Shown here: in pieces, positions 4,244 through 20,070 of the stretch
Numbering within the stretch: the first letter of the stretch is position 1
Layout of the letters: each line of letters begins with the position of its first letter
DNA from: a virus
Taxonomy: Duplodnaviria > Heunggongvirae > Uroviricota > Caudoviricetes
DNA: 20,931 nt
Strand: one strand, 5' to 3'
IMG/VR virus record: IMGVR_UViG_2700989274_000005
Coordinates: 1-20,931 of that record
Program-made: the position numbers and the translations under genes
The notes under the pieces: generated by a model
The model's input: the letters and a program-made list of their open reading frames with translations, nothing else
Databases searched by the model: none
Told to the model about the DNA's origin: nothing

Positions 4244-4265
4244 CTGATGATTTTGCTTTTCATGT

Positions 4266-4547: not shown

Positions 4548-4557
4548 TCAGTGGTTG

Positions 4558-4749: not shown

Positions 4750-4910
4750 ACAGCTCCCCGTTTATTATTTATCTCCTCAGCCAGCCGCTGGGCTTTCAGC
4801 GGATTTCGGATAACAGAAAGGCCGGGAAATACCCAGCCTCGCTTTGTAACGGAGTAGACGAAAGTGATCGCGCCTACCCGGATATTATCGTGAGGATGCT
4901 TCATTGCCAT
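4722..4910 (-). CDS. Lambda orf60a-like small protein
   Basis: 62-aa ORF overlapping the exo start, as orf60a does in lambda. Confidence 0.45.
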
Positions 4911-5581
4911 TGCTCCCCATATACAAAACCAATTTCAGCCAGTGCCTCGTCCATTTTTTCGATGAACTCCGGCACCATCTCGTCAAAACTCGCCATGTAC
5001 TTTTCATTCCGCTCAACCACGACGTAATGCAGGCCTTCACGCTTCATGCGCGGGTCATAGTTGGCAAAGTACCAGGCATCTTTTCGCGTCACCCACATGC
5101 TGTACTGCACCTGGGCCATGTAAGCCGATTTTATTGCCTCGAAACCACCGAGCCGGAATTTCATGAAATCCCGGGAGGTAAACGGGCATTTCAGTTCAAG
5201 GCCGTTGCCGTCACTGCATAAACCATCGGGAGAGCAGGCGGTGCGCATATTTTCGTCGCGATAGATGATCGGGGATTCAGTAATATTCACGCCGGAAGTG
5301 AATTCAAACAGGGTTCTGGCGTCGTTCTCGTACTGTTTTCCCCAGGCCAGCGCCTTAGCATTAACTTCCGGAGCCACACCGGTGCAAACCTCAGCCAGCA
5401 GGGTGTGGAAGTAGGACATTTTCATGTCAGGCCACTTCTTTCCTGAGCGGGGCTTTGCTATCACGTTGTGAACTTCTGAAGCGGTGATGACGCCGAGCCG
5501 TAATTTGTGCCATGCATCATCCCCCTGTTCGACAACTCTCACGTCGATCCCGGTACGCTGCAGGATAATGTCCGGTGTCAT
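4901..5581 (-). CDS. exo: Lambda exonuclease (Red alpha)
   Basis: 226-aa [18 protein letters not shown]...; near-identical to lambda Exo as recalled; overlaps bet by 4 nt. Confidence 0.95.
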
Positions 5582-6363
5582 GCTGCCACCTTCTGCTCAG
5601 TGGCTTTCTGTTTAAGGAATCCAAGAGCTTTCACTGCTTCGGCCTGTGTCAGTTCTGACGATGCGCGAATGTCGCGGCGAAATATCTGGGAACAGAGCGG
5701 CAATAAGTCGTCATCCCATGTTTTATCCAGGGCGATCAGCAGAGTGTTAATCTCCTGCATGGTTTCATCGTTAACCGGAGTGATGTCGCGTTCCGGCTGA
5801 CGTTCTGCAGTGTATGCAGTATTTTCGACAATGCGCTCGGCTTCATCCTTGTCATAGATACCAGCAAATCCGAAGGCCAGACGGGCACACTGAATCATGG
5901 CTTTATGCCGTAACATCCGTTTGGGATGCGACTGCCACGGCCCCGTGATTTCTCTGCCTTCGCGGGTTTTGAATGGTTCGCGGCGGCATTCATCCATCCA
6001 CTCGGTAACGCAGATCGGATGATTGCGGTCTTTGCGGTAAATCCGGCATGTGCAGGATTCGTTGTCCTGTTCAAAGTCCATGCCGTCAAACTGCTGGTTT
6101 TCGTTGATGATGCGGGACCAGCCATCAACGCCCACCACCGGAACGATGCCGTTCTGCTTATCAGGGAAGGCGTAAATTTCTTTCGTCCACGGATTAAGAC
6201 CGTACTGGTTGGCGACGATCAGCAATGCGATGAACTGCGCATCGCTGGCATCACCTTTAAATGCCGTCTGGCGAAGAGTGGTGATCAGTTCCTGTGGGTC
6301 GACAGAATCCATGCCGACTCGTTCAGCCAGCTTCCCAGCCAGCGTTGCGAGTGCTGTACTCAT
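5578..6363 (-). CDS. bet: Lambda Bet (Red beta single-strand annealing protein)
   Basis: 261-aa [69 protein letters not shown]...; matches lambda Bet as recalled. Confidence 0.95.
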
Positions 6364-6368
6364 CCGTT

Positions 6369-6665
6369 TTATACCTCTGAATCAATATCAACCTGGTGGT
6401 GAGCAATGGTTTCAACCATGTACCGGATGTGTTCTGCCATGCGCTCCTGAAACTCAACATCGTCATCAAACGCACGGGTAATGGCTTTTTTGCTGACCCC
6501 GTGGCGTTGCAAATGATCGATGCATAGCGATTCAAACAGGTGCTGGGGCAGGCCTTTTTCCATGTCGTCTGCCAGTTCTGCCTCTTTCTCTTCACGGGCG
6601 ATCTGCTGGTAGTGACGCGCCCAGCTCTGAGCCTCAAGACGATCCTGAATGTAATAAGCGTTCAT
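6369..6665 (-). CDS. gam: Gam (RecBCD inhibitor), 98-aa GamS-length form
   Basis: 98-aa [24 protein letters not shown]... matching the C-terminal 98 aa of lambda Gam; AGGAG Shine-Dalgarno directly upstream; DNA upstream is not lambda-like. Confidence 0.9.
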
Positions 6666-6740
6666 GGCTGAACTCCTGAAAATGGCTGTGAAAATATCGC
6701 CCGCGAAATGCCAGGCTGATTAGGAAAACAGGAAAGGGGA

Positions 6741-7151
6741 TTAGTGATTCAGGCCGTTACCGCGTCCGTCGAGAAAAACTTCTACGAGCAAATCACGGGT
6801 ATAAGTGCGCTCGATGCCGCGATGCAGATAAAGCCGTCCGCGTAAATTAGCTGATGCAGTCCAGGTACCATCTTTGTGTTTGACCAGCATTCCTGGCATG
6901 ACCGCACCGCGATTAACGGTCTGCGTTCCGTAATGTTGATGAACCATAAAAACTCCTGCCCGTAAGCTGGGCTGCTGAACATATAGAGACTTCTGCGCGT
7001 ATTCAGGCGGTGGATGGCCGCCGGTTGTCATAACTAAGCCGCCTCGTTGAAGCGACTGAGGTATAAAGTGTTGTGTTGATTTCAGCTGGTCACACCGACG
7101 TTCACGCGTCCGTTTCACCCCTCGCACTCCCCGAAGCCTGCTGAAATTCAA
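6741..7151 (-). CDS. Hypothetical first gene of the early-left operon; Arg-rich N-terminus resembling N-family arginine-rich motifs; start codon uncertain
   Basis: Open frame begins at a TTG (7151). A GTG at 7118 has a GGGGAG Shine-Dalgarno and would start the protein at ...[15 protein letters not shown] (compare lambda N ...TRRRERRAEKQAQ). An internal ATG at 6947 has a strong AGGAG Shine-Dalgarno and gives a 68-aa product. Confidence 0.35.
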
Positions 7152-7224
7152 ACTGCGGATCTAAGCGGTCATCGCAACGGTGAAACAGGTGGTTACCGTA
7201 TCGTTGTGTCGTTGCGATGAATTT

Positions 7225-7300
7225 AATTTAAAACTATAGTTGTTTTATCGTCAACAACAAAAGTTGTTTTGTCGGTTGTTTTAAATATAACTGGTTGTAT
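7225..7300 (-). promoter_or_regulatory. Putative OL/pL: leftward promoter overlapped by repressor operator repeats
   Basis: Minus strand reads TTGACG-ataaaacaactatagtt-TTAAAT, nearly the same string as the putative pR. Cluster of GTTGTT-type half-sites (7239-7257, 7264-7280, 7293-7299). Confidence 0.5.
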
Positions 7301-7380
7301 TTAGGATGGATTTATTTTGTGACTTGCATCGCATAGCGATAACTGAAGTGAGGTGTGGTGGTTTTTTGGACGGTATGAGT

Positions 7381-7411
7381 TATGAGGGGGAGGAAAAGAA
7401 AACCCGGCGCG
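7381..7411 (-). terminator. Putative intrinsic terminator after the lipoprotein gene (minus strand)
   Basis: 7-bp GC-rich stem acccggc/gccgggt with 6-nt loop, followed on the minus strand by uuuucuuuucc; sits 18 nt beyond the lipoprotein stop. Confidence 0.55.
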
Positions 7412-7428
7412 GTTGCCGGGTATGATTA

Positions 7429-7809
7429 TCAGTCAGCCCAACCTGATTTCGAGTTTATTTGGGTTTCTGACATTGTGTATTTCTTAATCGTGTCATCGTT
7501 AAAAAGAATAGTAAGTTCTTTTTTCGTACCGTTCGTTCCATTATGGAATAATCCATAGAATGGAATAAAAGTGGTGCCATTAACTTTTACTTTTGCAAAG
7601 GCGTACTTCCAGATCTCGTTTCCACTGTCAGTATATGAAACAGCATCAGGAGAACCAAAGTAAGATTTAACCTCATTCTTGGTTGTTTTACCTTCCTGAA
7701 GTTTAGACTGGACACTAATTTCAGTTTCATTTTTGAGTTGCTGGTTGCCTGAAGAAGCACACCCAGCCAATACAGATGCCATCATGGCAGCGATTAGGAT
7801 TTTTCTCAT
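7429..7809 (-). CDS. Small lipoprotein cargo gene in the rexAB-equivalent position (between repressor gene and OL); possible SmpA/OmlA (BamE)-like fold
   Basis: 126-aa ORF MRKILIAAMMASVLAGCASS... with signal peptide and lipobox (LAGC); AT-rich; co-oriented with the repressor gene; has its own downstream terminator. Confidence 0.65.
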   Translation of the reverse strand: MRKILIAAMMASVLAGCASSGNQQLKNETEISVQSKLQEGKTTKNEVKSYFGSPDAVSYTDSGNEIWKYAFAKVKVNGTTFIPFYGLFHNGTNGTKKELTILFNDDTIKKYTMSETQINSKSGWAD

Positions 7810-8038
7810 TTTATGTTTCCATTCATTATAATCAGAAACATCTTAACATAATGATTCGAAATAAAAACCGCTACGAGATAGGGGGACATTTTGCTGACAG
7901 TAGCAACAAATCTCAGCTAACAACGAGAATATTTACTGAAATATGCAAACAGATTTGGCGTTCTTATAGAGAATTTAGTGCAATATCTAATCCGAGTGGT
8001 ATAAACCTTAACCTTCGCTCCCTTAAGTCGTAGATAAA

Positions 8039-8728
8039 TTAACCATGCTTCCTGTACGTCTGCGGCATGCTTCCAATGACCTTACCGAATATGAACACCC
8101 GGTTCATCTCGTCTTTCTCGATCGGGTCCCACGGCGAGTAGCTCTTGTTATCAGAGATAACCAGCAGCTTATCCTTCATCATTTGAAGACGTTTTACATG
8201 GGCAGTGTCGTCGTACAGAAACGCATAGATGCCATCACCGTCGAAAGATTTAACAGTGATATCAACGAACAGCAGGTCACCTGGTTCGATCGTCCCTGAC
8301 ATGCTGTCACCTCGCACGTTAATGATGCGGATATTTTCCGCCTTCCTGCCATCGAACATGTGACGAGCATCGTCAAACGAGTACTCAACCGAGCGTAGAA
8401 CTTCTACAAACTCACGGTTGATTACACCTGGCCCGGCACTGACTTCTATATCAAGAACGTCAATTTTGAAGTATTTGGAATGGCTGACAGTTGATTGTAT
8501 TGGTTGCACTGTACTGTCTGACATATTTCCAACGCCAGAAGATAACCATTCTGCGCGCACACCCAAAGCGTTCGCGATCTCCACGATTTTAGTTGTTTGG
8601 TTAGCTTTCCCTGTTTCGATTTTCTGAATAGCAGCCTGGCTAACCCCGACCAAATCCCCAAGCGCCTTTTGTGTAAGGCCTCGCGCTAATCTGGCTTCTT
8701 TAAGTCTTTCTGAGAGTGTTGTTTTCAT
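8039..8728 (-). CDS. CI-like prophage repressor (N-terminal XRE-type HTH, C-terminal S24 LexA-like autopeptidase domain)
   Basis: 229-aa ORF; HTH segment LTQKALGDLVGVSQAAIQKIETGK; C-terminal GDSM serine motif and KRL lysine motif typical of RecA-stimulated self-cleaving repressors; divergent from the cro-like gene. Confidence 0.85.
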   Translation of the reverse strand: MKTTLSERLKEARLARGLTQKALGDLVGVSQAAIQKIETGKANQTTKIVEIANALGVRAEWLSSGVGNMSDSTVQPIQSTVSHSKYFKIDVLDIEVSAGPGVINREFVEVLRSVEYSFDDARHMFDGRKAENIRIINVRGDSMSGTIEPGDLLFVDITVKSFDGDGIYAFLYDDTAHVKRLQMMKDKLLVISDNKSYSPWDPIEKDEMNRVFIFGKVIGSMPQTYRKHG

Positions 8729-8769
8729 AGATCAAATGTACAACCAAGGTTTTATTTCATCAAACGAAA

Positions 8770-8805
8770 ATGGTTGTTGACTAAAAACAACCATAGTTTT
8801 AATCT
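8770..8805 (+). promoter_or_regulatory. Putative OR/pR: operator palindrome overlapping a rightward promoter
   Basis: Perfect inverted repeat ATGGTTGTT-gactaaa-AACAACCAT (8770-8794); -35 TTGACT (8777-8782), 17-bp spacer, -10-like TAATCT (8800-8805); GGAGG Shine-Dalgarno before the cro-like ATG at 8833. Confidence 0.55.
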
Positions 8806-8832
8806 TTATTCGGATTAACCACGGAGGTTGTT

Positions 8833-9063
8833 ATGAACCCAGCAATCAAAACAGCGATCAATATCGTTGGTTCACAAAAGAAACTAGGCGATGCCTGCGA
8901 AGTTTCACAGCAGGCCGTCTATAAGTGGCTTCACAACAAAGCAAAGGTATCCCCTGAACATGTCGGCAGCATTGTTACGGCTACTGGTGGAGTTGTGAAG
9001 GCATACCAGATTCGCCCGGATCTTCCGAAGTTGTTTCCACACACCGAAAAGAACGCAGCTTAA
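8833..9063 (+). CDS. Cro-like HTH regulator (Cro/CI family)
   Basis: 76-aa ORF with HTH-like segment (QKKLGDACEVSQQAVYKW); first gene transcribed rightward from the operator region, divergent from the repressor gene. Confidence 0.7.
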   Translation: MNPAIKTAINIVGSQKKLGDACEVSQQAVYKWLHNKAKVSPEHVGSIVTATGGVVKAYQIRPDLPKLFPHTEKNAA

Positions 9064-9075
9064 ATTTCCATTTCA

Positions 9076-9084
9076 CGCTCTTTA
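9076..9084 (+). promoter_or_regulatory. boxA-like element (CGCTCTTTA) in nutR position
   Basis: Exact match to the boxA consensus, 13 nt after the cro-like stop, where lambda nutR lies; no canonical boxB hairpin seen next to it. Confidence 0.35.
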
Positions 9085-9132
9085 ACAATAAGCAATCAAC
9101 TTAACAGTCAATTCAAACTAAAGGAGTCAATT

Positions 9133-9672
9133 ATGCAACCACTTACATACCAACAGACTAGCGGATTTATTCCGACTGCGGTGATAAATCGTTCTCAAAC
9201 AAAACAAGCTCCAGGCCACGAAAAAATCCGTGATGCCGTCCGCGCCTGGTCGGCTGTAGATAATCAGGATGTCGTTGCCGCACTCATTGTGAATGAGTAT
9301 CGGGAGCAGGGCGACGGCACCATCGATTTCCCTGATGATGTCAGCCGTGCACGCCAGAAGCTGTTCCGCTTCCTCGATAACAAATTCGATTCTGAAAAAT
9401 ACCGAAATAACGTGCGTGAACTGACCCCGGCAATTCTGGCGGTACTACCGCTGGAATATCGCGGTTACCTGGTTGAGCAGGATAGCTTCATGACTCGGTT
9501 GGCTGAAATGGAAAAGGAACTCAGTGAGGCAAAACAGGCTGTCATTCTCAACGCACCACGCCACCAGAAACTGAAGGAAATGAGTGAAGGTATTGTGTCG
9601 ATGTTTCGTGTGGACCCGGATCTGGCTGGTCCATTAATGGCGATGGTGACCACCATGCTGGGGGCAATATGA
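9133..9672 (+). CDS. YdaT/CII-like prophage regulatory protein
   Basis: 179-aa ORF in the cII position; segment LTPAILAVLPLEYR resembles the YdaT-family segment I recall from Rac YdaT (LIPAILAILPRELR). Confidence 0.45.
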   Translation: MQPLTYQQTSGFIPTAVINRSQTKQAPGHEKIRDAVRAWSAVDNQDVVAALIVNEYREQGDGTIDFPDDVSRARQKLFRFLDNKFDSEKYRNNVRELTPAILAVLPLEYRGYLVEQDSFMTRLAEMEKELSEAKQAVILNAPRHQKLKEMSEGIVSMFRVDPDLAGPLMAMVTTMLGAI

Positions 9673-9758
9673 CAGGTTCAGAAATGGCGAAAGTCGGTCT
9701 GCGGGAACAGAACCGACTTTCAGGTGCAAATCGTAACACACTCATTGCGGGAGGAATT

Positions 9759-10688
9759 ATGGCAAACACTGCTGAGATATTCAATTTTCCAGTGCCGGAT
9801 GCGGCACAAAAGGAGCCGCGCGTGGCAGATCTCGATGATGGTTATACGCGCATTGCAAATGAGTTGCTGGAAGCTGTGATGCTGGCCGGATTAACACAGC
9901 ACCAGCTTCTGGTCTTCCTGGCTGTCATGCGCAAAACATATGGCTTTAATAAAAAACTGGATTGGGTGAGCAACGAGCAACTTTCCGAGTTGACCGGGAT
10001 ATTGCCGCACAAGTGTTCTGCTGCAAAAAGTGTTCTGGTAAAGCGTGGGATTTTTATTCAGAGCGGGCGGAATATCGGCATTAATAATGTGGTCAGTGAA
10101 TGGTCAACATTACCCGAATCAGGTAAGAAAAATAAAGTTTACCTGAAAGAGGTAAATTTACCTGAATCAGGTAAGAAAAGTTTACCCAAATCAGGTAAAG
10201 GCACTTACCCGAATCAGGTAAACACAAAATACAAACTAACAAAAGACAATATAAAACCTTTTTCGTCCGAGAATTCTGGCGAATCCTCTGACCAACCAGA
10301 AAACGATCTTCCTGTGGAGAAACCAGATGCTGCAATTCAGAGCGGCAGCAGGTGGGGGACAGCAGAAGACCTGACCGCCGCAGAGTGGATGTTTGACATG
10401 GTGAAGACCATCGCGCCATCAGCCAGAAAACCGAATTTTGCAGGGTGGGCTAACGATATCCGCCTGATGCGTGAACGTGACGGCCGTAACCACCGCGACA
10501 TGTGCGTGCTGTTCCGCTGGGCATGCCAGGACAACTTCTGGTCCGGTAACGTGCTAAGTCCGGCCAAACTCCGCGACAAGTGGACCCAACTCGAAATCAA
10601 CCGTAACAAGCAACAGGCTGGCGTGATAGCCGGAAAATCAAAACTCGACCTGACAAACACTGACTGGATTTACGGGGTGGATTTATGA
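9759..10688 (+). CDS. Replication initiator O-like protein (likely start at 9759; the longer frame opens at 9669)
   Basis: N-terminus MANTAEIFNF...VADLDDGYTRIANELLEA parallels lambda O (MTNTAKILNF...VADLDDGYARLSNMLLEA); GGGAGG Shine-Dalgarno before 9759; iterons inside the gene; stop overlaps the P start. Confidence 0.8.
   Translation: MANTAEIFNFPVPDAAQKEPRVADLDDGYTRIANELLEAVMLAGLTQHQLLVFLAVMRKTYGFNKKLDWVSNEQLSELTGILPHKCSAAKSVLVKRGIFIQSGRNIGINNVVSEWSTLPESGKKNKVYLKEVNLPESGKKSLPKSGKGTYPNQVNTKYKLTKDNIKPFSSENSGESSDQPENDLPVEKPDAAIQSGSRWGTAEDLTAAEWMFDMVKTIAPSARKPNFAGWANDIRLMRERDGRNHRDMCVLFRWACQDNFWSGNVLSPAKLRDKWTQLEINRNKQQAGVIAGKSKLDLTNTDWIYGVDL
10110..10222. repeat. Replication origin iterons (five 18-bp repeats, consensus TTACCyGAATCAGGTAAr) within the O gene, followed by an AT-rich stretch to about 10260
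   Basis: Repeats at 10110-10127, 10139-10156, 10158-10175, 10182-10199, 10205-10222, each internally palindromic (ttacc...ggtaa); encode repeated LPESGKK-like peptide in O; AT-rich tract follows. Confidence 0.8.
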
Positions 10689-11386
10689 AAAACATCGCCG
10701 CACAGATGGTTAACTTTGACCGTGAGCAGATGCGCCGGATCGCCAACAACATGCCGGAACAGTACGACGAAAAGCCGCAGGTACAACAGGTAGCGCAGAT
10801 CATCAATGGTGTGTTCAGCCAGTTACTGGCAACTTTCCCGGCGAGCCTGGCTAACCGGGACCAGAACGAACTGAACGAAATCCGCCGCCAGTGGGTTCTG
10901 GCTTTCCGGGAAAACGGGATCACCACGATGGAACAGGTTAACGCAGGAATGCGCGTAGCCCGTCGGCAGAATCGACCATTCCTGCCATCACCCGGGCAGT
11001 TTGTTGCCTGGTGCCGGGAAGAAGCATCCGTTACCGCCGGGCTGCCAAACGCCAGCGAGCTGGTTGATATGGTTTACGAGTATTGCCGGAAACGTGGCCT
11101 GTATCCAGATGCAGAGTCTTATCCGTGGAAATCAAACGCGCACTACTGGCTGGTTACCAACCTGTATCAGAACATGCGGGCCAATGCGCTGACTGATGCG
11201 GAATTACGGCGCAAGGCTGCCGATGAACTGGCCTGTATGACAGCGCGAATTAACCGTGGTGAGGCGATACCTGAACCAGTAAAACAACTTCCTGTCATGG
11301 GCGGGAGACCGCTTAATCGTGTTCAGGCTCTGGCGAAGATCGCAGAAATCAAAGCGAAGTTTGGGCTGAAAGGAGCAAGTGTATGA
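10685..11386 (+). CDS. P: Lambda replication protein P (DnaB helicase loader)
   Basis: 233-aa ORF MKNIAAQMVNFDREQMRRIANNMPEQYDEKPQVQQVAQIINGVF...; near-identical to lambda P as recalled. Confidence 0.95.
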   Translation: MKNIAAQMVNFDREQMRRIANNMPEQYDEKPQVQQVAQIINGVFSQLLATFPASLANRDQNELNEIRRQWVLAFRENGITTMEQVNAGMRVARRQNRPFLPSPGQFVAWCREEASVTAGLPNASELVDMVYEYCRKRGLYPDAESYPWKSNAHYWLVTNLYQNMRANALTDAELRRKAADELACMTARINRGEAIPEPVKQLPVMGGRPLNRVQALAKIAEIKAKFGLKGASV

Positions 11387-11670
11387 CGGGCAAAGAGGCA
11401 ATTATTCATTACCTGGGGACTCATAAGAACTTCTGTGCGCAGGACGTTGCCGCGGTAACAGGCGCAACCGTAACCAGCATAAATCAGGCTGCGGCTAAAA
11501 TGGCGCGGTCAGGAATCCTGGTCGTTGATGGTAAGGTCTGGCGAACGGTGTATTACCGGTTCGCTACCAGAGAAGAACGGGAAGGAAAGGTGAGCACGAA
11601 TCTGATTTTTAAGGAGTGTCGTCAAAGTGCCGCGATGAAGCGGGTGTTGGCTTTATATGGAAGAGAGTAG
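11383..11670 (+). CDS. ren: Lambda Ren
   Basis: 95-aa ORF MTGKEAIIHYLGTHKNFCAQDVAAVTGATVTSINQAAAKMARSG...; matches lambda Ren as recalled; overlaps the P stop. Confidence 0.85.
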   Translation: MTGKEAIIHYLGTHKNFCAQDVAAVTGATVTSINQAAAKMARSGILVVDGKVWRTVYYRFATREEREGKVSTNLIFKECRQSAAMKRVLALYGRE

Positions 11671-11734
11671 GTATGAGCAATTATTGTTACTAATTTTAGT
11701 TTTACGACATTCGTGATAACTAAATAATTGATGT

Positions 11735-11989
11735 GTGGAACTGAATTATAAAGGGGATGATGTTTTGGGAAATAAAGAAAATATCGATTGTAAGCACACA
11801 AGAAGCTCATGCTATAAAAACAAGCAGATGAAAGATGTTATTTATATTACATTGCCTAAACTCACTGAAGAAGAAGTAGAAATTTTTAAGGGACCAATGC
11901 ATAAAGCATTGCTTGCAGGGATAAATGTTACAAAAAAGGCAGTTTCTGATGCCCTGCTAAACAAAGGGATAAAAGTTGAATTTAAATAG
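11735..11989 (+). CDS. Hypothetical small protein in the AT-rich cargo slot (GTG start as listed; possible internal ATG start giving about 53 aa)
   Basis: 84-aa frame in AT-rich DNA, convergent with the 472-aa gene; weak ribosome-binding context, so coding status is uncertain. Confidence 0.3.
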   Translation: MELNYKGDDVLGNKENIDCKHTRSSCYKNKQMKDVIYITLPKLTEEEVEIFKGPMHKALLAGINVTKKAVSDALLNKGIKVEFK

Positions 11990-12005
11990 AGTAATTCAGT
12001 GGCAA

Positions 12006-12033
12006 CAATAGCACTCATTTGTGAGTGCTATTG
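12006..12033. terminator. Perfect 12-bp stem / 4-nt loop hairpin between the convergent cargo genes (possible bidirectional terminator)
   Basis: caatagcactca-tttg-tgagtgctattg seen; lies between the stop at 11989 (plus) and the stop at 12041 (minus). Confidence 0.5.
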
Positions 12034-12040
12034 AAATTTA

Positions 12041-13459
12041 TTAGAAAATAATGTTTGCTATATCCGAGATAGCATTTAAAGAACCTCTGTGGTCACTTCC
12101 TGTTTTAGGTAAAATATAGGAATATCGAGGGTCTTCATTATATGTTAACTTCCAGTGTTTTCCATCGCTTGACGCACTGAAACCTAAGTCCTTTAAATTT
12201 CTTTGTGTTGCGCTATCCATGCTTCTGTAACCTGTTAAAGTCCTTTTAAGTAATTGGCGGCGACTCTCGGTTTCTTTATTGTATTCATTATTGGCAATTA
12301 GGGATGATAAGATATGGTAGCTTCTACCAAATTCATTTTTATTTTTTATGGCAGTTTTTAGTGCGTCAATAATTATATTTTTGATTTCTCCATCAAAAAA
12401 ATCAGTCTCTTCACCAGCATTAAGCACAATGCTTCCTTGGGCTGAAGCTTGTGATTGAAGAGTGCGTACTCTGTGCTCTAAAGAGGAGATCTTATGCTTA
12501 AGATCTTCTATTTGGTCATCTTTCGCAACATTATCGGCTTCGTAAAGCGCCATCAGTTCGCGTGTGTATTCTCCTCTTTCTTTGAGTGAGTTAATAGAGT
12601 CTTTCGTTTTTCTGGTTTGTATCTCACTCCATCCACTATCTGAGACAGGAGCCATTGTAGTCGTAGCTCTTACAACATCATCAAATAACTCATCTTCAAA
12701 TTCTTTTGCGGTTTTCTCACCACGGCGATAAAAACTGATATTTTGACCCCGTGGCCAATAGATACCAACAGCACCAGCATAGGCATTTTTAGCATTTGTC
12801 TCATTTTTTAGCTTAATAGAAAATAGTCTATTGCTAGGCTCAATTAATACATGTGCTAATCCGCATACCTTTCTTGCAAGGCGTTCTGGGATGATATTGT
12901 GAGCATGTTCATTAAAAAAATACTTGGAGCTAACGTATATTATTGGTAGTCTGTTGTCAGTTTCACCATTTATAACTTTAGCTGCTATATTTAAATGTTC
13001 ATCAGTATCATCTAAGGAATGAGGTTCGACTGACACCTTGAAAATATCATCAAGACCACCAGAAAATTTATCAATCAATCTCATAACAACTAATGGTTTC
13101 TTAGGTTGCGGGGCTAGATAAGCTGCATCTTGGCTTACAACGCTAGATTCCACCTGAATCCACATGGTATCAGTTTTGAGATTTTTATTAATTGAAATAT
13201 CTGTTACCCATTTGTGTGGCTCAGATATTTTCGAATACCTAAAACAGCCTAAACTAGTATCTTTGTTTTTATAAGTTATTATATCAATTCTTTCATTTTT
13301 AGACTCTATGAAGTACTCCTCGCTTTTATAATCACATACTAATTGTGCTGGAATAAAAGTTGTATGTGGTGAGTCGTTTACCCAAGAAAAACATTCATTA
13401 AAGATCTCAGCTAGAGATGTGGAGTTTGAAACATAAAAACCAGTTGAGAAATATTTCAT
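12041..13459 (-). CDS. Orphan 472-aa protein, no recognised family; low-GC cargo gene antisense to the early-right operon
   Basis: 1.4-kb uninterrupted ORF in AT-rich DNA; AAGGA Shine-Dalgarno 7 nt before the ATG; no Walker A or HExxH seen; heptad-like charged segment around aa 300-340 (DDQIEDLKHKISSLEHRVRTLQSQ). Confidence 0.75.
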   Translation of the reverse strand: MKYFSTGFYVSNSTSLAEIFNECFSWVNDSPHTTFIPAQLVCDYKSEEYFIESKNERIDIITYKNKDTSLGCFRYSKISEPHKWVTDISINKNLKTDTMWIQVESSVVSQDAAYLAPQPKKPLVVMRLIDKFSGGLDDIFKVSVEPHSLDDTDEHLNIAAKVINGETDNRLPIIYVSSKYFFNEHAHNIIPERLARKVCGLAHVLIEPSNRLFSIKLKNETNAKNAYAGAVGIYWPRGQNISFYRRGEKTAKEFEDELFDDVVRATTTMAPVSDSGWSEIQTRKTKDSINSLKERGEYTRELMALYEADNVAKDDQIEDLKHKISSLEHRVRTLQSQASAQGSIVLNAGEETDFFDGEIKNIIIDALKTAIKNKNEFGRSYHILSSLIANNEYNKETESRRQLLKRTLTGYRSMDSATQRNLKDLGFSASSDGKHWKLTYNEDPRYSYILPKTGSDHRGSLNAISDIANIIF

Positions 13460-13476
13460 GAAATTTCCTTATTAAA

Positions 13477-13494
13477 AATGAGATTAATCTCATT
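13477..13494. promoter_or_regulatory. Perfect 18-bp palindrome just upstream of the 472-aa gene (candidate operator or regulatory hairpin)
   Basis: aatgagatt|aatctcatt seen 18 nt upstream of the start codon at 13459. Confidence 0.35.
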
Positions 13495-13734
13495 GGCTAT
13501 GATAATTGTTACCCTCCTTTGGATCTAGTGTTCATTTGACATAAGAACCTATTGATTCATCATAATCAACTCGCCATAATCATGTCATCGGAGCCTGAAC
13601 AACTCCGGTGACTTCTGCGCTTTGAGGGGACTCAAAGTGCAAACGACAATCAGAACACCTTTCAACCAGTCACAGATGCAGAAATGCACCTGCGATATCT
13701 TGCATCCAACGTTTGACCTCTGCGGAGGTGAAGC

Positions 13735-14190
13735 GTGAACCTCCCACAAGATGGTATCAAATTGCATCGCGGTAACTTCACCGCTATCGGTCGGCAGATC
13801 CAGCCTTATCTGGAGGACGGCAAATGCTTTCGCATGGTGCTTAAACCGTGGCGCGAGAGACGCAGTCTTTCCCAGAATGCACTCAGCCACATGTGGTACA
13901 GCGAAATCAGTGAATACCTCATCAGCAAGGGTAAAACGTTCGCCACTCCAGCTTGGGTAAAAGATGCTCTCAAACACACATATCTCGGTTATGAAACCAA
14001 AGACCTGGTTGATGTCGTAACCGGTGATATCACCACTATCCAGTCGTTACGCCATACCTCCGATCTTGATACCGGAGAGATGTATGTCTTCCTGTGTAAG
14101 GTTGAAGCCTGGGCGGTGAATATTGGCTGCCACCTGACTATTCCGCAGAGCTGCGAGTTCCAGCTGCTCCGCGACAAGCAGGAGGCGTAA
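13735..14190 (+). CDS. ybcN: YbcN-like nin-region protein (DLP12 ybcN family)
   Basis: 151-aa ORF with GTG start and GGAGG Shine-Dalgarno; size and position before ninE-ybcO-rusA match DLP12 ybcN. Confidence 0.6.
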
Positions 14191-14360
14191 TGGCTACACC
14201 GCTTATTCGTGTCATGAACGGACACATCTACAGAGTACCAGATCGTCGTAAGCGTAAACCGGAGCTGAAGCCTTCCGAAATACCAACACTGCTCGGATAT
14301 ACCGCCAGCCTGGTTGATAAAAAATGGTTGCGACTGGCAGCAAGGAGGAATCATGGCTGA
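14190..14360 (+). CDS. ninE: NinE (56 aa), not in the supplied ORF track
   Basis: Translated by hand: [56 protein letters not shown]; ATG overlaps the ybcN stop (taATG); ends 14360, overlapping the ybcO start. Confidence 0.65.
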   Translation: MATPLIRVMNGHIYRVPDRRKRKPELKPSEIPTLLGYTASLVDKKWLRLAARRNHG

Positions 14361-14643
14361 TTTGAGAAAAGCAGCGCGTAGTCGGGAATGCCAGGTAAGA
14401 ATCCCTGGCGTATGTAATGGCAACCCTGAAACGTCTGTACTGGCACATATCCGGCTGACTGGATTGTGCGGCACCGGTACCAAACCGCCAGACCTGATTG
14501 CCACCATTGCATGTTCTGCCTGCCACGACGAAATCGACCGCCGCACACATTTTGTCGATGCTGCATATGCAAAAGAATGCGCGCTGGAAGGTATGGCGAG
14601 AACACAGGTTATCTGGCTGAAAGAGGGGGTTATTAAGGCGTGA
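14353..14643 (+). CDS. ybcO: YbcO-like protein (DUF1364, cysteine-cluster putative nuclease); start at 14353 rather than 14314
   Basis: 96 aa from MADLRK... with AAGGAGGA Shine-Dalgarno; Cys cluster CQVRIPGVC...CSAC; lies directly before rusA as in DLP12. Confidence 0.65.
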
Positions 14644-15002
14644 ATACCTACAGCATCACATTACCCTGGCCTCCGAGCAATAATCGCTATTACCGCCATA
14701 ATCGCGGGCGCACGCACGTCAGCGCAGAGGGGCAGGCATACCGCGATAACGTCGCCCGAATCATTAAAAACGCAATGCTGGATATCGGCCTGGCTATGCC
14801 TGTGAAAATCCGCATTGAGTGCCACATGCCGGATCGCCGTCGCCGTGACCTGGATAATCTGCAAAAAGCCGCTTTTGACGCACTCACTAAAGCAGGTTTC
14901 TGGCTGGATGATGCTCAGGTCGTTGATTACCGCGTTGTGAAGATGCCTGTTACCAAAGGTGGGAGGCTGGAACTGACCATCACCGAAATGGGGAATGAAT
15001 GA
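14640..15002 (+). CDS. rusA: RusA Holliday-junction resolvase
   Basis: 120-aa [50 protein letters not shown]...; matches E. coli RusA as recalled. Confidence 0.9.
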
Positions 15003-15139
15003 TGTTTGAGTTTTATATGGCAGAACGTCTTCGCCACCGCTGGGGGCGTCTGCGCTTATATCGTTTCCCCGGTTCTGTTTTGACCGATTACCGAATACTG
15101 AAGAATTACGCCAAAACCCTGACAGGAGCAGGAGTATGA
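14999..15139 (+). CDS. ylcG: YlcG-like small protein (46 aa), not in the supplied ORF track
   Basis: Translated by hand: [46 protein letters not shown]; ATG overlaps the rusA stop; DLP12 gene order rusA-ylcG-Q. Confidence 0.55.
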
Positions 15140-15224
15140 AGTCAGAGATAACAATCAACTAATACTGTTTTGTTGATTTTTGCTTGTAATTGGCGTTCTG
15201 GTCTGATTTTTGTGGAGTAAGTTG

Positions 15225-15271
15225 ATGCGTGATATTCAGATGGTTCTTGAGCGTTGGGGAGCGTGGGCGGC
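15225..15271 (+). CDS. Q-like late antiterminator, 5' fragment only (first 15 codons), truncated by the assembly gap
   Basis: ATG at 15225 encodes MRDIQMVLERWGAWA..., the N-terminus of DLP12-type Q (QuuD) as recalled; runs into the N run at 15272. Confidence 0.6.
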
Positions 15272-15281
15272 NNNNNNNNNN
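15272..15281. other. Assembly gap (10 N) joining prophage sequence to an unrelated chromosomal locus
   Basis: Run of 10 N; upstream is the prophage Q start, downstream is the interior of an autotransporter gene. Confidence 0.95.
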
Positions 15282-15282: not shown

Positions 15283-18200
15283 ATCGTCAATAACGAAGGC
15301 GAGAGCACTATCACCAATGGCGGCACCGGCACTCAGATCAACGGTAACGACGCCACCGCGAATAACAGTGGAAAAACCACTGTTGATGGAAAAGATTCCA
15401 CGGGTACCAAAATCGCGGGCAATATCGGCATTGTAAATCTGGATGGTAGCCTGACTGTTACAGGCGGTGCGCATGGTGTTGAGAACATTGGTGACAACGG
15501 CACGGTTAACAACAAAGGAGATATTGTTGTTTCCGATACTGGATCGATTGGCGTGCTCATCAACGGTGAGGGGGCAACAGTATCCAATACGGGTGATGTT
15601 AACGTTAGCAATGAAGCGACAGGGTTCAGCATCACAACCAACAGTGGGAAGGTTTCGCTGGCAGGCAGTATGCAGGTTGGCGATTTCTCGACCGGGGTAG
15701 ATCTTAATGGCAACAATAACAGCGTGACGCTGGCGGCAAAAGATCTAAAAGTGGTCGGGCAGAAAGCGACGGGCATAAACGTTTCTGGCGATGCGAATAC
15801 AGTGAATATCACTGGTAACGTTCTGGTTGATAAGGATAAAACCGCAGACAATGCGGCGGAATATTTCTTCGATCCATCCGTGGGTATCAACGTTTACGGC
15901 AGTGATAATAACGTGACGCTGGATGGAAAGTTAACTGTTGTATCAGACAGTGAGGTTACTTCTCGTCAGAGTAATTTATTTGATGGCAGCGCAGAGAAAA
16001 CGTCAGGTCTGGTTGTGATTGGCGATGGCAATACCGTTAATATGAATGGTGGACTTGAACTGATTGGAGAGAAAAACGCGCTTGCAGATGGGTCGCAGGT
16101 TGCTTCCTTGCGCACAGGATATAGTTATACCAGCGTTATTGTCGTTAGTGGTGAGTCGTCGGTATATCTGAATGGAGATACGACAATCAGCGGAGAATTC
16201 CCTCTGGGGTTTGCCGGGGTTATTCGGGTACAGGATAAAGCTTTGCTGGAAATTGGCAGTGGCGCTACGCTAACAATGCAGGATATTGACAGTTTTGAAC
16301 ATCATGGGACAAGAACCCCAGAACTTACTTATGCTGATTCCGGTGCGAAAATTGTTAATAAAGGTACTGTTGAAATTCAGAATTTAGGTTTTGCTTTTGT
16401 TACTGGTGAAAATACAACAGGTATAAATAGTGGCACGATCTCGTTATTACAAAATGGTAAAGATCCGGCACCGTCTCCCATTGTTTTACTGGCTACTAAC
16501 GGAGGGAGCGCCACTAATGCAGGTACGATCACAGGTAAAGTGACGGAACAACATAGCGTATTTAACAAGTATTCAACGGGCACATCGAATTCATTTATTT
16601 TTAATAACGATGTCAGTAGCATAACAGGGTTAGTCGCTCAATCGAATAGCACAATTATCAATACTGACAGCGGCATCATTGATTTGTATGGTCGTGGTAG
16701 TGTCGGCATGCTTGCTATAGCAGATTCAACAGCAGAAAATCAGGGTAAAATTACACTGGATTCTATGTGGGTACATGCAAATGACACTACCGCAATGCGA
16801 GATATAGCTAGCAACAGCGCCATTGACTTCGGTACAGGTGTGGGAGTTGGTACTGATAGTTATAGTGGTGCAGGGAAAAATGCAACAGCAATTAACCAAT
16901 TGGGCGGTGTTATAACTATTTATAACGCCGGCGCAGGTATGGCGGCCTATGGCGCCAGCAATACAGTTATTAACCAGGGGACGATTAACCTCGAAAAAAA
17001 TGGTAATTATGACGATAGTCTGGCAGCAAATACTCTGGTAGGGATGGCTGTTTATGAGCATGGTACTGCTATCAACGACCAGACGGGTGTTATCAATATC
17101 AATGTTGGTACTGGTCAGGCGTTTTATAACGATGGCACAGGAACAATTGTTAACTATGGTACAATCTGCACTTTCGGCGTGTGCCAATCGGGGAATGAGT
17201 ACAATAATACAGATGATTTCACCTCACTGATCTATACCGGTGGCGATACGATTACACGAAGCGGAGAAACTGTAACGCTAAATAAATCTGCTGCTGTGAC
17301 TGATAAGCTGGCTGGGAATGTTGTTAATAGCGGAACGCTTTCCGGTGATCAAATTACGGTATCAAGCGGTCTTCTGGAAAATACCAGCGGTGGCATCATC
17401 AATAACTTAGTAAAACTTGACAAGGGTGCCGTCATTAAAAATGCCGGGGTGATGACGAATAACGTCGATGTTAGCGGTGGAATCCTCAATAATGCCGGAG
17501 AAATGACTGCGCAAATTACCATGAATGCTGGTGCTGATAGTTCGTTAGTGAACAACACCGGAACCATCAATAAAATCGTGCAGAACGCGGGGGTATTCAA
17601 TAATAGTGGCAGTGTAACAGGGCGGATGATGTCGGCTGGCGGGGTCTTTAATAATCAAACTGACGGGGCGATTATGAGAGGTGCTGCGCTGACAGGTACT
17701 GCAGTGGCAAATAACGAAGGAACCTGGAACCTCGGAAGTAGTAGTGAGGGTAACAACACCGGGATGCTGGAAGTTAATAATAATTCAGCTTTCAATAACC
17801 GCGGCGAGTTTATTCTTGATAACGACAAGAATGCTGTGCACATCAACCAGTCCGGTACGCTTTATAATACCGGTCACATGAACATCAGTAATTCTTCCCA
17901 CAACGGAGCCGTTAATATGTGGGGCGGAAATGGTCGTTTTATCAATGACGGAACGATTGATGTTTCTGCGAAGTCACTGGTAGTCAGCGCTAATAATGCC
18001 GGCGATCAGAATGCCTTCTTCTGGAACCAGGATAACGGGGTCATCAACTTCGATCACGACAGCGCCAGTGCCGTGAAAGTCACCCACAGCAACTTTATTG
18101 CCCAGAATGACGGCATCATGAACATCAGCGGCACCGGTGCTGTGGCTATGGAAGGTGATAAGAACGCGCAGCTGGTTAACAATGGCACCATCAACCTCGG

Positions 18201-19863
18201 TACCGCAGGCACTACTGACACGGGTATGATCGGTATGCAACTCGATGCCAACGCCACGGCGGATGCGGTAATCGAAAACAACGGCACCATCAATATCTTC
18301 GCCAATGACTCGTTTGCATTTAGCGTACTGGGTACAGTAGGTCATGTGGTTAACAACGGCACGGTGGTGATTGCCGATGGGGTTACGGGTTCTGGACTGA
18401 TCAAGCAGGGCGACAGCATCAATGTTGAAGGTATGAACGGTAACAACGGTAATAGCAGCGAAGTGCATTATGGCGACTATACGTTGCCGGATGTGCCGAA
18501 GCCCAATACGGTTAGTGTAACGTCGGGAAGTGATGAGGCTGGTGGCAGCATGAACAACCTCAACGGCTATGTCGTCGGTACCAACGTTAACGGCAGCGCC
18601 GGGAAGCTGAAGGTTAACAATGCCAGCATGAACGGCGTGGAGATTAACACGGGCTTTACCGCTGGTACGGCAGACACCACTGTGAGTTTTGATAACGTAG
18701 TGGAAGGTAGCAACCTGACCGACGCTGACGCCATCACCTCAACGTCCGTGGTATGGACTGCCAAAGGCAGCACCGATGCCAGCGGTAACGTTGACGTCAC
18801 CATGAGCAAAAATGCCTACACCGATGTGGCAACAGATGCCTCGGTGAATGACATCGCGAAAGCACTGGATGCGGGTTACACCAACAACGAACTGTTTACC
18901 AGCCTGAACGTCGGCACGACTGCTGAACTGAACAGTGCTCTGAAACAGGTCAGCGGTAGCCAGGCGACCACGGTATTCCGCGAAGCGCGCGTGTTAAGCA
19001 ACCGCTTTAGTATGCTGGCAGATGCCGCGCCGAAAGTGGGTAACGGTCTGGCGTTCAACGTTGTCGCGAAAGGCGATCCGCGTGCCGAGTTAGGTAATAA
19101 TACCGAATACGACATGCTGGCATTGCGTAAAACTATCGACCTGAGCGAAAGCCAGACGATGAGTCTGGAGTACGGTATCGCTCGTCTCGATGGTGATGGT
19201 GCGCAGAAAGCGGGTGATAATGGCGTTACAGGCGGTTATAGCCAGTTTTTTGGCCTGAAACATCAGATGTCGTTCGATAACGGCATGAACTGGAATAACG
19301 CCTTGCGTTACGACGTTCACAACCTTGACAGCAGCCGCTCGATTGCATTTGGCAACACGAACAAAACGGCTGATACCGACGTGAAACAGCAGTACCTGGA
19401 GTTCCGCAGCGAAGGGGCGAAGACTTTCGAACCGAGCGAAGGACTGAAGGTTACGCCATATGCGGGTGTAAAACTGCGTCACACACTGGAAGGTGGCTAT
19501 CAGGAGCGCAATGCCGGAGACTTTAACCTGAATATGAACAGTGGCAGCGAAACGGCGGTGGACAGCATCGTCGGGCTGAAACTGGACTACGCAGGTAAAG
19601 ACGGCTGGAGCGCTAGCGCTACGCTGGAAGGCGGGCCGAACCTGAGCTACGCGAAGAGCCAGCGTACGGCAAGCCTGGCAGGCGCAGGCAGTCAGCACTT
19701 TAACGTCGATGACGGTCAGAAGGGCGGCGGCATCAATAGCCTGACAAGCGTCGGCGTGAAGTACAGCAGCAAAGAAAGTTCGCTGAATCTGGATGCGTAC
19801 AACTGGAAAGAGGATGGCATCAGCGATAAAGGCGTGATGCTGAACTTTAAGAAAACGTTCTAA
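15283..19863 (+). CDS. ydbA: YdbA-like autotransporter (beta-helical passenger plus C-terminal beta-barrel translocator), 5'-truncated at the gap
   Basis: About 1526 in-frame codons after the gap; Gly/Asn/Thr/Val-rich repetitive passenger; C-terminal about 280 aa with alternating barrel-like pattern ending in a terminal Phe (...LNFKKTF); followed by ydbC as in K-12. Confidence 0.8.
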   Translation: MVNNEGESTITNGGTGTQINGNDATANNSGKTTVDGKDSTGTKIAGNIGIVNLDGSLTVTGGAHGVENIGDNGTVNNKGDIVVSDTGSIGVLINGEGATVSNTGDVNVSNEATGFSITTNSGKVSLAGSMQVGDFSTGVDLNGNNNSVTLAAKDLKVVGQKATGINVSGDANTVNITGNVLVDKDKTADNAAEYFFDPSVGINVYGSDNNVTLDGKLTVVSDSEVTSRQSNLFDGSAEKTSGLVVIGDGNTVNMNGGLELIGEKNALADGSQVASLRTGYSYTSVIVVSGESSVYLNGDTTISGEFPLGFAGVIRVQDKALLEIGSGATLTMQDIDSFEHHGTRTPELTYADSGAKIVNKGTVEIQNLGFAFVTGENTTGINSGTISLLQNGKDPAPSPIVLLATNGGSATNAGTITGKVTEQHSVFNKYSTGTSNSFIFNNDVSSITGLVAQSNSTIINTDSGIIDLYGRGSVGMLAIADSTAENQGKITLDSMWVHANDTTAMRDIASNSAIDFGTGVGVGTDSYSGAGKNATAINQLGGVITIYNAGAGMAAYGASNTVINQGTINLEKNGNYDDSLAANTLVGMAVYEHGTAINDQTGVININVGTGQAFYNDGTGTIVNYGTICTFGVCQSGNEYNNTDDFTSLIYTGGDTITRSGETVTLNKSAAVTDKLAGNVVNSGTLSGDQITVSSGLLENTSGGIINNLVKLDKGAVIKNAGVMTNNVDVSGGILNNAGEMTAQITMNAGADSSLVNNTGTINKIVQNAGVFNNSGSVTGRMMSAGGVFNNQTDGAIMRGAALTGTAVANNEGTWNLGSSSEGNNTGMLEVNNNSAFNNRGEFILDNDKNAVHINQSGTLYNTGHMNISNSSHNGAVNMWGGNGRFINDGTIDVSAKSLVVSANNAGDQNAFFWNQDNGVINFDHDSASAVKVTHSNFIAQNDGIMNISGTGAVAMEGDKNAQLVNNGTINLGTAGTTDTGMIGMQLDANATADAVIENNGTINIFANDSFAFSVLGTVGHVVNNGTVVIADGVTGSGLIKQGDSINVEGMNGNNGNSSEVHYGDYTLPDVPKPNTVSVTSGSDEAGGSMNNLNGYVVGTNVNGSAGKLKVNNASMNGVEINTGFTAGTADTTVSFDNVVEGSNLTDADAITSTSVVWTAKGSTDASGNVDVTMSKNAYTDVATDASVNDIAKALDAGYTNNELFTSLNVGTTAELNSALKQVSGSQATTVFREARVLSNRFSMLADAAPKVGNGLAFNVVAKGDPRAELGNNTEYDMLALRKTIDLSESQTMSLEYGIARLDGDGAQKAGDNGVTGGYSQFFGLKHQMSFDNGMNWNNALRYDVHNLDSSRSIAFGNTNKTADTDVKQQYLEFRSEGAKTFEPSEGLKVTPYAGVKLRHTLEGGYQERNAGDFNLNMNSGSETAVDSIVGLKLDYAGKDGWSASATLEGGPNLSYAKSQRTASLAGAGSQHFNVDDGQKGGGINSLTSVGVKYSSKESSLNLDAYNWKEDGISDKGVMLNFKKTF

Positions 19864-19883
19864 TTTTTAGCATGTGATCCCTA

Positions 19884-19917
19884 AACCGCAACGCTGATAC
19901 AGGTTGCGGTTTTTTTA
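19884..19917 (+). terminator. Intrinsic terminator downstream of the autotransporter gene
   Basis: 9-bp stem aaccgcaac/gttgcggtt with 10-nt loop, followed by a T7 run. Confidence 0.75.
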
Positions 19918-20070
19918 TTGCCGGATGTGGTACGTGACGCGTTTTGTTTTGTGTCTTTCAGGACAATAGAGCAACTCATCCAGTAATCTTGTTTACACCT
20001 TCGCATTATTTATCTCTTTTCGTTTCTATACTGATTTTTCTTAATCCGTTTTATTACAGGGCAGGGTGCG

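Follow-up and report, generated by a model that had tools for sequence, protein, structure and literature searches.

The locus described here raises the question of the role of a 472-aa protein that is encoded between ren and ybcN, in a cargo position of a lambdoid prophage. The gene lies in a stretch of DNA of 20,931 nucleotides (the window; positions 1 to 20,931 of the IMG/VR virus record IMGVR_UViG_2700989274_000005). An earlier note, made from the letters of this DNA, had considered the gene to be an orphan and a candidate for an undescribed prophage defence or exclusion function. Our results indicate that the protein is probably a self-contained sensor-plus-RNase anti-phage protein of the abortive-infection type, carried as swappable cargo by lambdoid prophages, a reading that was built from sequence comparisons and a structural model. 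It would most likely stop competing phages by halting translation. The gene and the parts of its product are as follows.

12041..13459, minus strand: 472-aa gene with an ATG start, from the open reading frame (ORF) list; candidate defence protein (WP_042028685-type 'hypothetical protein')
13115..13459, minus strand: domain 1, aa 1-115, alpha+beta, AdoMetDC / spermine-synthase-N / START-like
12650..13102, minus strand: domain 2, aa 120-270, alpha/beta thioredoxin fold without CxxC, with the motif G200-x-A202-H203-V
12455..12631, minus strand: coiled-coil helices, aa 277-335 (helices 277-295 and 300-335), starting at an LYE-DN motif common to HEC-07 (see below)
12215..12454, minus strand: low-confidence linker (aa 336-357) and three-helix bundle (aa 358-408)
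12044..12214, minus strand: HicA-like C-terminal module, aa 416-472, 57 aa, alpha-beta-beta-beta-alpha, predicted RNase effector
12155..12157, minus strand: codon of the invariant His435 (G433-K434-H435-W-K437), aligned to the catalytic His23 of HicA

An ORF of this kind could be a chance ORF or a decaying pseudogene in AT-rich junk DNA. The DNA is indeed AT-rich and horizontally acquired, and the product is a 'hypothetical protein' in every database. The chance that 472 codons remain open at the base composition of the cassette is about 1.4e-15, and the view that an uninterrupted 1.4-kb ORF in such DNA is not accidental was thus borne out. Comparison with a 77%-identical homologue gave a pS of 0.77 (synonymous sites saturated) and a pN of 0.15, for a pN/pS ratio of about 0.19, and dN/dS was about 0.18-0.26 where dS was measurable. 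The open-frame probability, the pN/pS ratio and the dN/dS values together showed that the ORF is a protein-coding gene under purifying selection. Thousands of full-length homologues and a confident fold prediction also stand against a chance or decaying ORF; that explanation was refuted by the size of the family and the selection figures, and we regard its probability as negligible. The break in composition with the lambda-like flanks (a block of about 33-37% GC against about 51%) and the orientation of the gene, opposed to the O/P/ren and ybcN/ninE/ybcO/rusA genes, were found as previously described. The protein contains no Walker A, HExxH or PD-(D/E)xK motif, again as reported before, and CxxC is absent too.

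The gene is not an orphan. A word-indexed search returned 75 clusters, from Enterobacterales, Pseudomonas, Caulobacter and metagenomes, and an exhaustive HMMER profile search returned 3,469 cluster representatives at E<=0.001 (1,036 at E<=1e-30), which sets a lower limit to the size of the family. The best 150 representatives (clusters at 50% identity) matched end to end and were about 460-480 aa long. Libraries of known families were less informative. Searches of Pfam and NCBIfam with the whole protein gave coiled-coil noise only, the sole match in PHROGs was the unannotated family phrog_2053 (on the C-terminus), and a search of PDB sequences with the whole-family profile gave coiled coils only. 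The C-terminal profile found nothing significant among PDB sequences, and HicA was not recovered in that search. Our literature search for a prior characterisation of the family turned up the HEC-07 preprint alone. The earlier description of the protein as undescribed and of unknown function therefore stands in that the family is unnamed; it does not stand for the front end, which matches a described system, nor for the C-terminus, which has a recognisable RNase toxin fold. Together these two matches allow a specific mechanism to be proposed.

Front end and C-terminal module

The AlphaFold2 model of the protein, made from a 44-sequence alignment, had a mean pLDDT of 82.4. The layout proposed earlier, an N-terminal domain of about 280 aa, a charged linker and a C-terminal domain of about 125 aa, was roughly right. 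The charged coiled coil is present at aa 277-335, where 39% of the residues are charged and where Pfam and PDB give coiled-coil matches only. The N-terminal 280 aa are in fact two domains (about 1-115 and about 120-270), and the end region of about 125 aa is made up of the helical bundle (358-408) and the 57-aa alpha-beta-beta-beta-alpha module. Invariant residues were found in the front end (W26, S30, D137, P172, G200, A202, H203, E207, G229 and P236), in the linker and bundle (E351, E358 and R379) and in the last 50 aa (G426, F427, H435, D443, R445 and Y446).

The sole defence match of the 472-aa protein was to the PADLOC model of HEC-07 (35.8 bits, E 1e-9), in which aa 83-334 were aligned with profile positions 107-366 of 553. 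The same model (PDLC04161) was matched by all 44 of the sampled family members (best 1.9e-14), with the match ending at about profile position 372. HEC-07 (Hma-embedded candidate 07) lowered plaquing when it was expressed in E. coli. According to the same preprint (Payne et al., bioRxiv 10.1101/2024.01.29.577857), it begins with an AdoMetDC-like domain (aligned to 3C6K), continues with a thioredoxin-like one that lacks CxxC and ends in a RelE-like RNase carrying His543. Our reference for HEC-07 was the tested protein, from P. aeruginosa NCTC13717 (WP_039244286.1, 549 aa). Comparison by hhalign of our family with this protein gave a probability of 95.2%, and comparison with a 27-member HEC-07 alignment gave 97.3% (E 1.7e-11, 340 columns). 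The alignment paired aa 8-367 of the 472-aa protein with aa 30-423 of HEC-07, with an identity of about 16-18%, and pairwise BLASTP between the two proteins gave an E of 2e-4.

The merged alignment of the two families showed that W26, R74, W84, T86, P122, D137, G200, A202, H203, V204, Y234 and P236 are conserved in both. Among the corresponding residues are W26/W48, W84/W104, D137/D155 and Y234/Y249 (472-aa protein/HEC-07), as well as G200-A202-H203/G216-A218-H219, and the LYE-DN motif is present in both. The AdoMetDC-like N-terminal domain and the CxxC-less thioredoxin-like second domain of HEC-07 are thus both present in the 472-aa protein. Both are single-polypeptide systems, each with a small end domain of the RNase-toxin type that carries an invariant His. 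The 472-aa protein is, however, about 80 aa shorter than HEC-07 and gave no full-length match to its HMMs (PADLOC PDLC04158-04161), whereas a true HEC-07 scored 739.9 bits on its own model, over positions 6-553. This difference, of about 36 bits over part of the profile against 740 bits from end to end, makes the 472-aa protein a distant relative of HEC-07 and not a member. Filing it as HEC-07 was rejected because the HMM match is partial and weak and because the C-terminus is different. The settings also differ: HEC-07 was found embedded in Hma systems, while the 472-aa gene is cargo of prophages, plasmids or conjugative elements.

The two proteins part at their C-termini. HEC-07 ends ...FRLYFFWDDESQIVVVGWLPSHLDNRAT and is RelE-like there (PDB 4LTT; weak Pfam match to YhaV), with His543 six residues from the end, whereas the 472-aa family has a HicA-like C-terminus, in which His435 stands thirty-seven residues before the end. 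When both C-termini were compared by hhalign, the probability was 1.6%. A homologous C-terminus in HEC-07, which had been suggested by the merged MAFFT alignment, is thus not supported by hhalign. A second invariant His of HEC-07, H509 (RHLK, residues 505-525), is not discussed in the preprint; its surroundings resemble GKHWK...PRYSYIL (residues 433-450) of the 472-aa protein. The motif H-x-K...P-R-[YF]-x-[YF]-x-L, with an invariant His, can be written for both families (H435 here and H509 in HEC-07).

When the structure of the C-terminal module was compared with 48,164 chains, HicA toxins took ranks 1, 2, 3, 6 and 14, with the following scores.

Rank 1: 6g26_E, 5.2 (56/61 residues aligned)
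Rank 2: 5yrz_D, 5.1
Rank 3: 1whz, 4.8
Rank 6: 4p78_D, 4.3
Rank 14: 6hpb_C, 3.7

The PADLOC HicA-like model matched 6 of the 44 members, exactly on the C-terminal module and below its threshold (best 2.6e-5). Pfam HicA_toxin (PF07927) was the top family for isolated modules (7/30, best E 0.0042, under the gathering threshold) and gave no match to the 472-aa protein itself. Comparison of the module with the alignment of the E. coli HicA family by hhalign gave a probability of 88.9-89.3% (E 2e-6) and placed G426, H435 and K437 on G14, H23 and K25 of E. coli HicA. The module has the size and fold of a HicA toxin (about 55-60 aa, dsRBD-like), with the His at the start of strand 2 and a Gly shortly before it; in the family, H435 is invariant and G433 is conserved in at least 90% of the sequences. 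The corresponding His of HicA (His23 in EcHicA, His24 in BpsHicA and His28 in YpHicA3) is required for RNase activity or toxicity, as is Gly22 of BpsHicA, two residues upstream of His24, and HicB neutralises HicA by masking this His (PMC11594946).

The C-terminal 57 aa share with HicA the alpha-beta-beta-beta-alpha, dsRBD-like fold (PF07927; PDB 6G26, 5YRZ, 1WHZ, 4P78 and 6HPB), and G433-K434-H435 reproduces the G-x-H arrangement of Gly22 and His24 of B. pseudomallei HicA. The module differs from HicA in being fused behind about 415 aa of other domains and in the segment that follows the third strand, which is PKTGSDHRG... in the 472-aa protein and a PRHP motif in HicA. Fusions of this general kind have been classified. 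The Fused HicA proteins of Classes 13 and 14 are, according to the class descriptions of Gerdes (2024, mBio, PMC10865869), monocistronic proteins in which a canonical C-terminal HicA follows a large, partly coiled-coil N-region, and phage defence by a CapRel-like autoinhibition was proposed for them. The 472-aa protein resembles them, as so described, in being a single protein with a HicA-type C-terminus after a large and partly coiled-coil N-region. By the same descriptions, Class 13 proteins have 340-440 aa and a mainly alpha-helical N-region and Class 14 proteins are SMC-domain fusions, whereas the members of the 472-aa family have about 462-480 aa and two alpha/beta domains in front. Neither WP_042028685 nor WP_053265998 is among those entries of the supplement of that paper that our comparison covered, which take in part of the Class 13 and 14 lists, so that the family may overlap with these classes.

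Genomic contexts of the family

The 472-aa gene is part of a cassette whose limits were placed by homology breaks against sibling prophages and by the shift in GC content.

11662..13561: low-GC cargo cassette, 1.9 kb, in the ren-ybcN slot

BLAST comparison with sibling prophages carrying other cargo showed that homology stops at 11649-11661 (the ren stop) and restarts at 13562-13564. The GC content is 34.6% for the cassette and 35.6% for the 472-aa gene, against 51% for both flanks. The full cassette was found in 24 of 5,426 complete E. coli genomes, in att-lambda/ybhC and argU/DLP12-type prophages alike, and the annotation of the 472-aa gene in these cassettes is invariably 'hypothetical protein'. 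In a sibling prophage with flanks 98.9% identical, the same slot holds PD-Lambda-1 (E 1.9e-198) plus two ORFs, in the same antisense orientation. PD-Lambda-1 consists of DUF4041 and a T5orf172/MUG113 nuclease and is a validated defence system (Vassallo et al. 2022). Like the 472-aa gene, it is a single gene, and its product is a coiled coil in the middle and ends in a domain of the nuclease type; the two proteins have no sequence or fold kinship, and the effector of PD-Lambda-1 is a GIY-YIG-like, DNA-directed domain. In DLP12 of K-12, we found emrE, ylcJ, ybcK, ybcL, ybcM and ylcH between renD and ybcN, in agreement with the cargo named in the earlier note. The contents of the slot thus differ between the prophage of the window, the sibling with PD-Lambda-1 and DLP12, so that the idea of a variable cargo position holds. 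With the 472-aa gene, PD-Lambda-1 and two ORFs, or emrE/ybcK/L/M as its alternative contents, the ren-ybcN slot has the character of a defence hotspot.

About 12 neighbourhoods of family members were sampled. The 77%-identical homologue marks one end of an integrative element, where it adjoins a P4-type integrase, and the element was found bordering on two different chromosomal sites. In a P2-like prophage of Morganella, a homologue is located between gpA and the portal gene, in the gpA-gpQ locus defined as the P2 defence hotspot by Rousset et al. 2022 (PMC9122126), and in Serratia a homologue is inserted antisense between the P2 tail genes S and V. The Dickeya homologue belongs to a conjugative element and has an Mrr-type gene beside it, and in Klebsiella the homologues make up the main cargo of ColE1-type plasmids of 5.9 kb. 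Pseudomonas homologues are found among Fic, HipA-like and BrnA genes or adjoin a prophage integrase, and a metagenomic homologue is beside Schlafen-AlbA/HATPase genes. No conserved neighbour gene emerged from these contexts, and the 472-aa gene therefore behaves as a single-gene system. No HicB antitoxin gene was adjacent or conserved in these neighbourhoods, and the arrangement of a type II operon was not found.

Two of the sampled contexts have features of their own. The K. pneumoniae plasmid NZ_CP028803.2 (5,897 bp, ColRNAI-type, mobilisable) has a 49%-identical homologue as its largest gene and a RelE/ParE toxin gene too, and near-identical plasmids are present in several clinical Klebsiella isolates. 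In two Pseudomonas loci (L009 6126-7845 and L024 5094-6813), a HipA_C-like gene (326-327 aa) and a gene of 247-248 aa, which gave a weak HIRAN match in one locus, directly precede the homologue on the same strand. This arrangement was not seen in Enterobacterales and could be a lineage-specific three-gene set or a neighbouring system.

Proposed mechanism and alternative explanations

The earlier proposal of a lysogen-carried single-gene anti-phage or abortive-infection function agrees with every computational line: the homology to HEC-07, the HicA-type module with its conserved catalytic His, PD-Lambda-1 in the slot of a sibling, homologues in defence hotspots, and no conserved partner gene. 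The mechanism that we propose is the following. The lysogen would make the 472-aa protein from its own promoter, antisense to the early-right operon of the phage, and the RNase module would be kept silent, either in cis or inside a coiled-coil dimer. The protein would thus combine toxin and antitoxin in one chain, as CapRel does, and have no HicB of its own. The front end would sense infection by another phage, upon which the HicA-like module, freed or assembled, would cut the RNA of both cell and phage without requiring the ribosome. Translation would halt and the cycle of the infecting phage would be left incomplete. CapRel(SJ46), as presented in PMC10865869, is likewise one prophage-encoded polypeptide that joins a translation-targeting toxin to a region both inhibiting this toxin and detecting phage. 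The analogy may hold for the mechanism only, for the two proteins share no sequence or fold kinship and the toxin of CapRel is an N-terminal tRNA pyrophosphokinase.

Several points weigh against an anti-phage role of this kind. The support for the role of the family is computational throughout, and the relationship to HEC-07 is a distant one (identity of about 16-18%, 36 bits over part of the profile, BLASTP E 2e-4). The evidence for the activity of HEC-07 comes from a preprint (10.1101/2024.01.29.577857), and HEC-07 itself has no assigned mechanism. The contexts are a sample of about 12 neighbourhoods and not a statistical enrichment. The least suggestive among them is that of the Caulobacter homologue, which follows uvrB with no obvious defence neighbours. 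Finally, tblastn of the 472-aa protein against 50,697 sequenced phage genomes found no homologue.

The main rival explanation assigns the opposite polarity to the protein. The HicA fold would then be an RNA-binding (dsRBD-type) sensor or targeting domain only and the front end, with D137, H203, Y234, W26 and W84, would be the enzyme or effector, so that the protein would keep a role in the conflict between phage and host without being an RNase toxin. It draws on the identity of the HicA fold with the dsRBD fold (PMC10865869) and on the front end, in which are located the strongest residues common to both families (W26, R74, W84, T86, P122, D137, G200, A202, H203, Y234 and P236). The front end is kept in both families while the C-termini are not detectably related, as expected if the front carried the core activity, and its folds are those of enzyme or ligand-binding families (AdoMetDC, START and thioredoxin). 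We nevertheless judge this explanation unlikely, since the His, the Gly at -2 and the Lys at +2 are at positions functionally required in HicA and are invariant or nearly so in a very divergent family, which mere RNA binding would hardly account for. The thioredoxin domain, moreover, is without the catalytic CxxC, and modular defence proteins usually pair a conserved sensor with variable C-terminal toxin domains.

The presence of a HicA-like toxin domain with no separate antitoxin also fits a fused toxin-antitoxin module that would serve addiction or stabilisation, aiding the retention of the mobile elements that carry it with no anti-phage role. The carriers, which are plasmids, prophages, a conjugative element and integrative elements, and the classical toxin-antitoxin genes found nearby agree with this. 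Post-segregational killing, however, requires an unstable antitoxin and a stable toxin, and a single polypeptide offers no obvious route to it. With a front end homologous to HEC-07, which reduces plaquing, and with positions that elsewhere hold PD-Lambda-1 and old/tin-type genes, we find a pure addiction role rather unlikely. A prophage or host-fitness 'moron' outside genetic conflict, such as a regulator of lysogeny or metabolism, would be in keeping with the non-defence genes emrE, ybcL and ybcM in the K-12 slot and with the homologue after uvrB, whose chromosomal context does not look mobile. Our library searches found no match of the 472-aa protein to a DNA-binding, transporter or metabolic family, and the spread of the family over unrelated types of mobile elements and over phyla, its toxin-fold C-terminus and its homology to HEC-07 indicate conflict systems instead, which makes such a moron very unlikely.

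Returning to the sensor-plus-RNase interpretation, the 472-aa family is best called a HEC-07-type sensor scaffold with a different RNase toxin fold, and also a new kind of fused HicA protein. Effector exchange between modular defence systems is common, so that a HEC-07-like scaffold with a HicA toxin is plausible rather than startling. More speculatively, the AdoMetDC/START-like and CxxC-less thioredoxin front end might be a previously unrecognised, widespread infection-sensor cassette, with a pocket formed by W26, R74, W84, T86, D137, G200-A202-H203 and Y234 and joined in evolution to no fewer than two RNase toxins of unrelated fold (HicA in the 472-aa family and RelE in HEC-07). Because of the folds that it resembles, this sensor might bind a small molecule altered by infection (a polyamine, or a SAM-derived or nucleotide-like metabolite) rather than a phage protein, and the coiled coil might relay the signal to the RNase. 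This extension is tentative, and we consider it doubtful as a whole.

Confirmation of the anti-phage role would turn a 'hypothetical protein' family that is found across Proteobacteria and counts thousands of cluster representatives into a named defence system of a single gene, with lambdoid and P2-like prophages, small plasmids and integrative and conjugative elements as its carriers. This family is at the margin of what current PADLOC models detect. Together with HEC-07, it would provide a natural experiment on the sensor and its coupling, with one conserved scaffold on two different RNase toxins. The idea of HicA domains as fused defence effectors without HicB would be extended, and the ren-ybcN (nin-proximal) position of lambdoid prophages would count among the defence hotspots of prophages, alongside the cI-adjacent slot, which in a sibling contains BstA.

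Other features of the cassette and of the window

The cassette contains an 84-aa ORF with a GTG start on the plus strand, a hairpin, the 472-aa gene with its Shine-Dalgarno sequence (SD) and a palindrome. These smaller features and a candidate promoter are listed here.

13466..13470, minus strand: SD, AAGGA, 6 nt before the ATG
13477..13494: perfect 18-bp palindrome AATGAGATTAATCTCATT, that is, AATGAGATT followed by AATCTCATT, between the putative promoter and the SD
13559..13588, minus strand: sigma-70-like promoter candidate, ATGACA-18-TATGAT, 10/12 positions in a consensus scan, spanning the right cassette boundary
12006..12033: hairpin with a perfect 12-bp stem and a 4-nt loop, between two convergent ORFs, terminator-like on the plus strand only
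11735..11989, plus strand: 84-aa ORF with a GTG start, within the cassette

The SD was found at 13470-13466 as reported, with a spacer of 6 nt and not the 7 nt given before. The sigma-70-like site at 13588-13559 is a candidate only by its match to the consensus. A strong SD-like sequence, AAAGGAGGG, is present at 13512-13520 on the minus strand, 52 nt upstream of the ATG of the 472-aa gene. No canonical start codon follows it; there are only ATT, ATC and ATA, in a frame that would end at a TGA overlapping the ATG, and this sequence is not conserved upstream of homologues.

Both inverted repeats described earlier were located: the upstream palindrome is perfect, and so is the 12-bp stem of the downstream hairpin. 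The hairpin would block rightward (pR-side) transcription from entering the 472-aa gene antisense. The two repeats were rejected as parts of the system; they are present in the E. coli cassette only and do not accompany the gene family at homologues elsewhere, and therefore should not be counted with it.

The 84-aa ORF had no match in Pfam, PADLOC, PHROG or NCBIfam and none in the phage genome collection by tblastn, and it was not found beside homologues outside E. coli. It was rejected as a partner or antitoxin on account of these missing family matches and of its absence elsewhere. A variant differing by 1 aa is labelled 'phospholipase D-like domain-containing protein' in one RefSeq genome, and a better SD (AAAGGGG) stands before an out-of-frame ORF of 23 codons at 11760. 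The 84-aa ORF may be a gene remnant or non-coding, and its coding status is uncertain.

Matches to complete E. coli genomes showed that the window holds a lambdoid prophage at the att-lambda site, beside ybhC. These matches cover positions 1-15271 and end at a run of 10 N (15272-15281). Since all of them end at this run, it represents a scaffold join; the DNA beyond it is unrelated to the prophage, and the Q, lysis and structural part of the prophage is missing from the window. The genes recognised beyond the join, neither of them prophage-related, are as follows.

Within 15283-20931: BigA-type surface protein, 1,526 aa, N-terminally cut (Pfam BigA_beta)
Within 15283-20931: aldo/keto reductase

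The prophage has other variable positions. A block at about 2945-3933, between xis and the exo/bet region, contains a low-GC 200-aa ORF (3133-3735, plus strand) that had neither a Pfam nor a PADLOC match. Other genes occupy this position in the sibling prophage JS01, and the block is a third cargo slot of the prophage. A YdaT_toxin-domain protein (E 4e-30) is encoded at 9133-9672 on the plus strand, in a cII-like position downstream of a cro-like gene, and the same was seen in sibling prophages. The cI-like repressor gene is adjoined by a variable block at about 7421-8039, with a low-GC 126-aa ORF (7429-7809, minus strand) that gave a weak BamE-lipoprotein match and no PADLOC match. In JS01, BstA (E 7e-122), a validated gene of abortive infection, occupies this cI-adjacent slot, and the small lipoprotein may likewise be cargo that serves in exclusion or defence.

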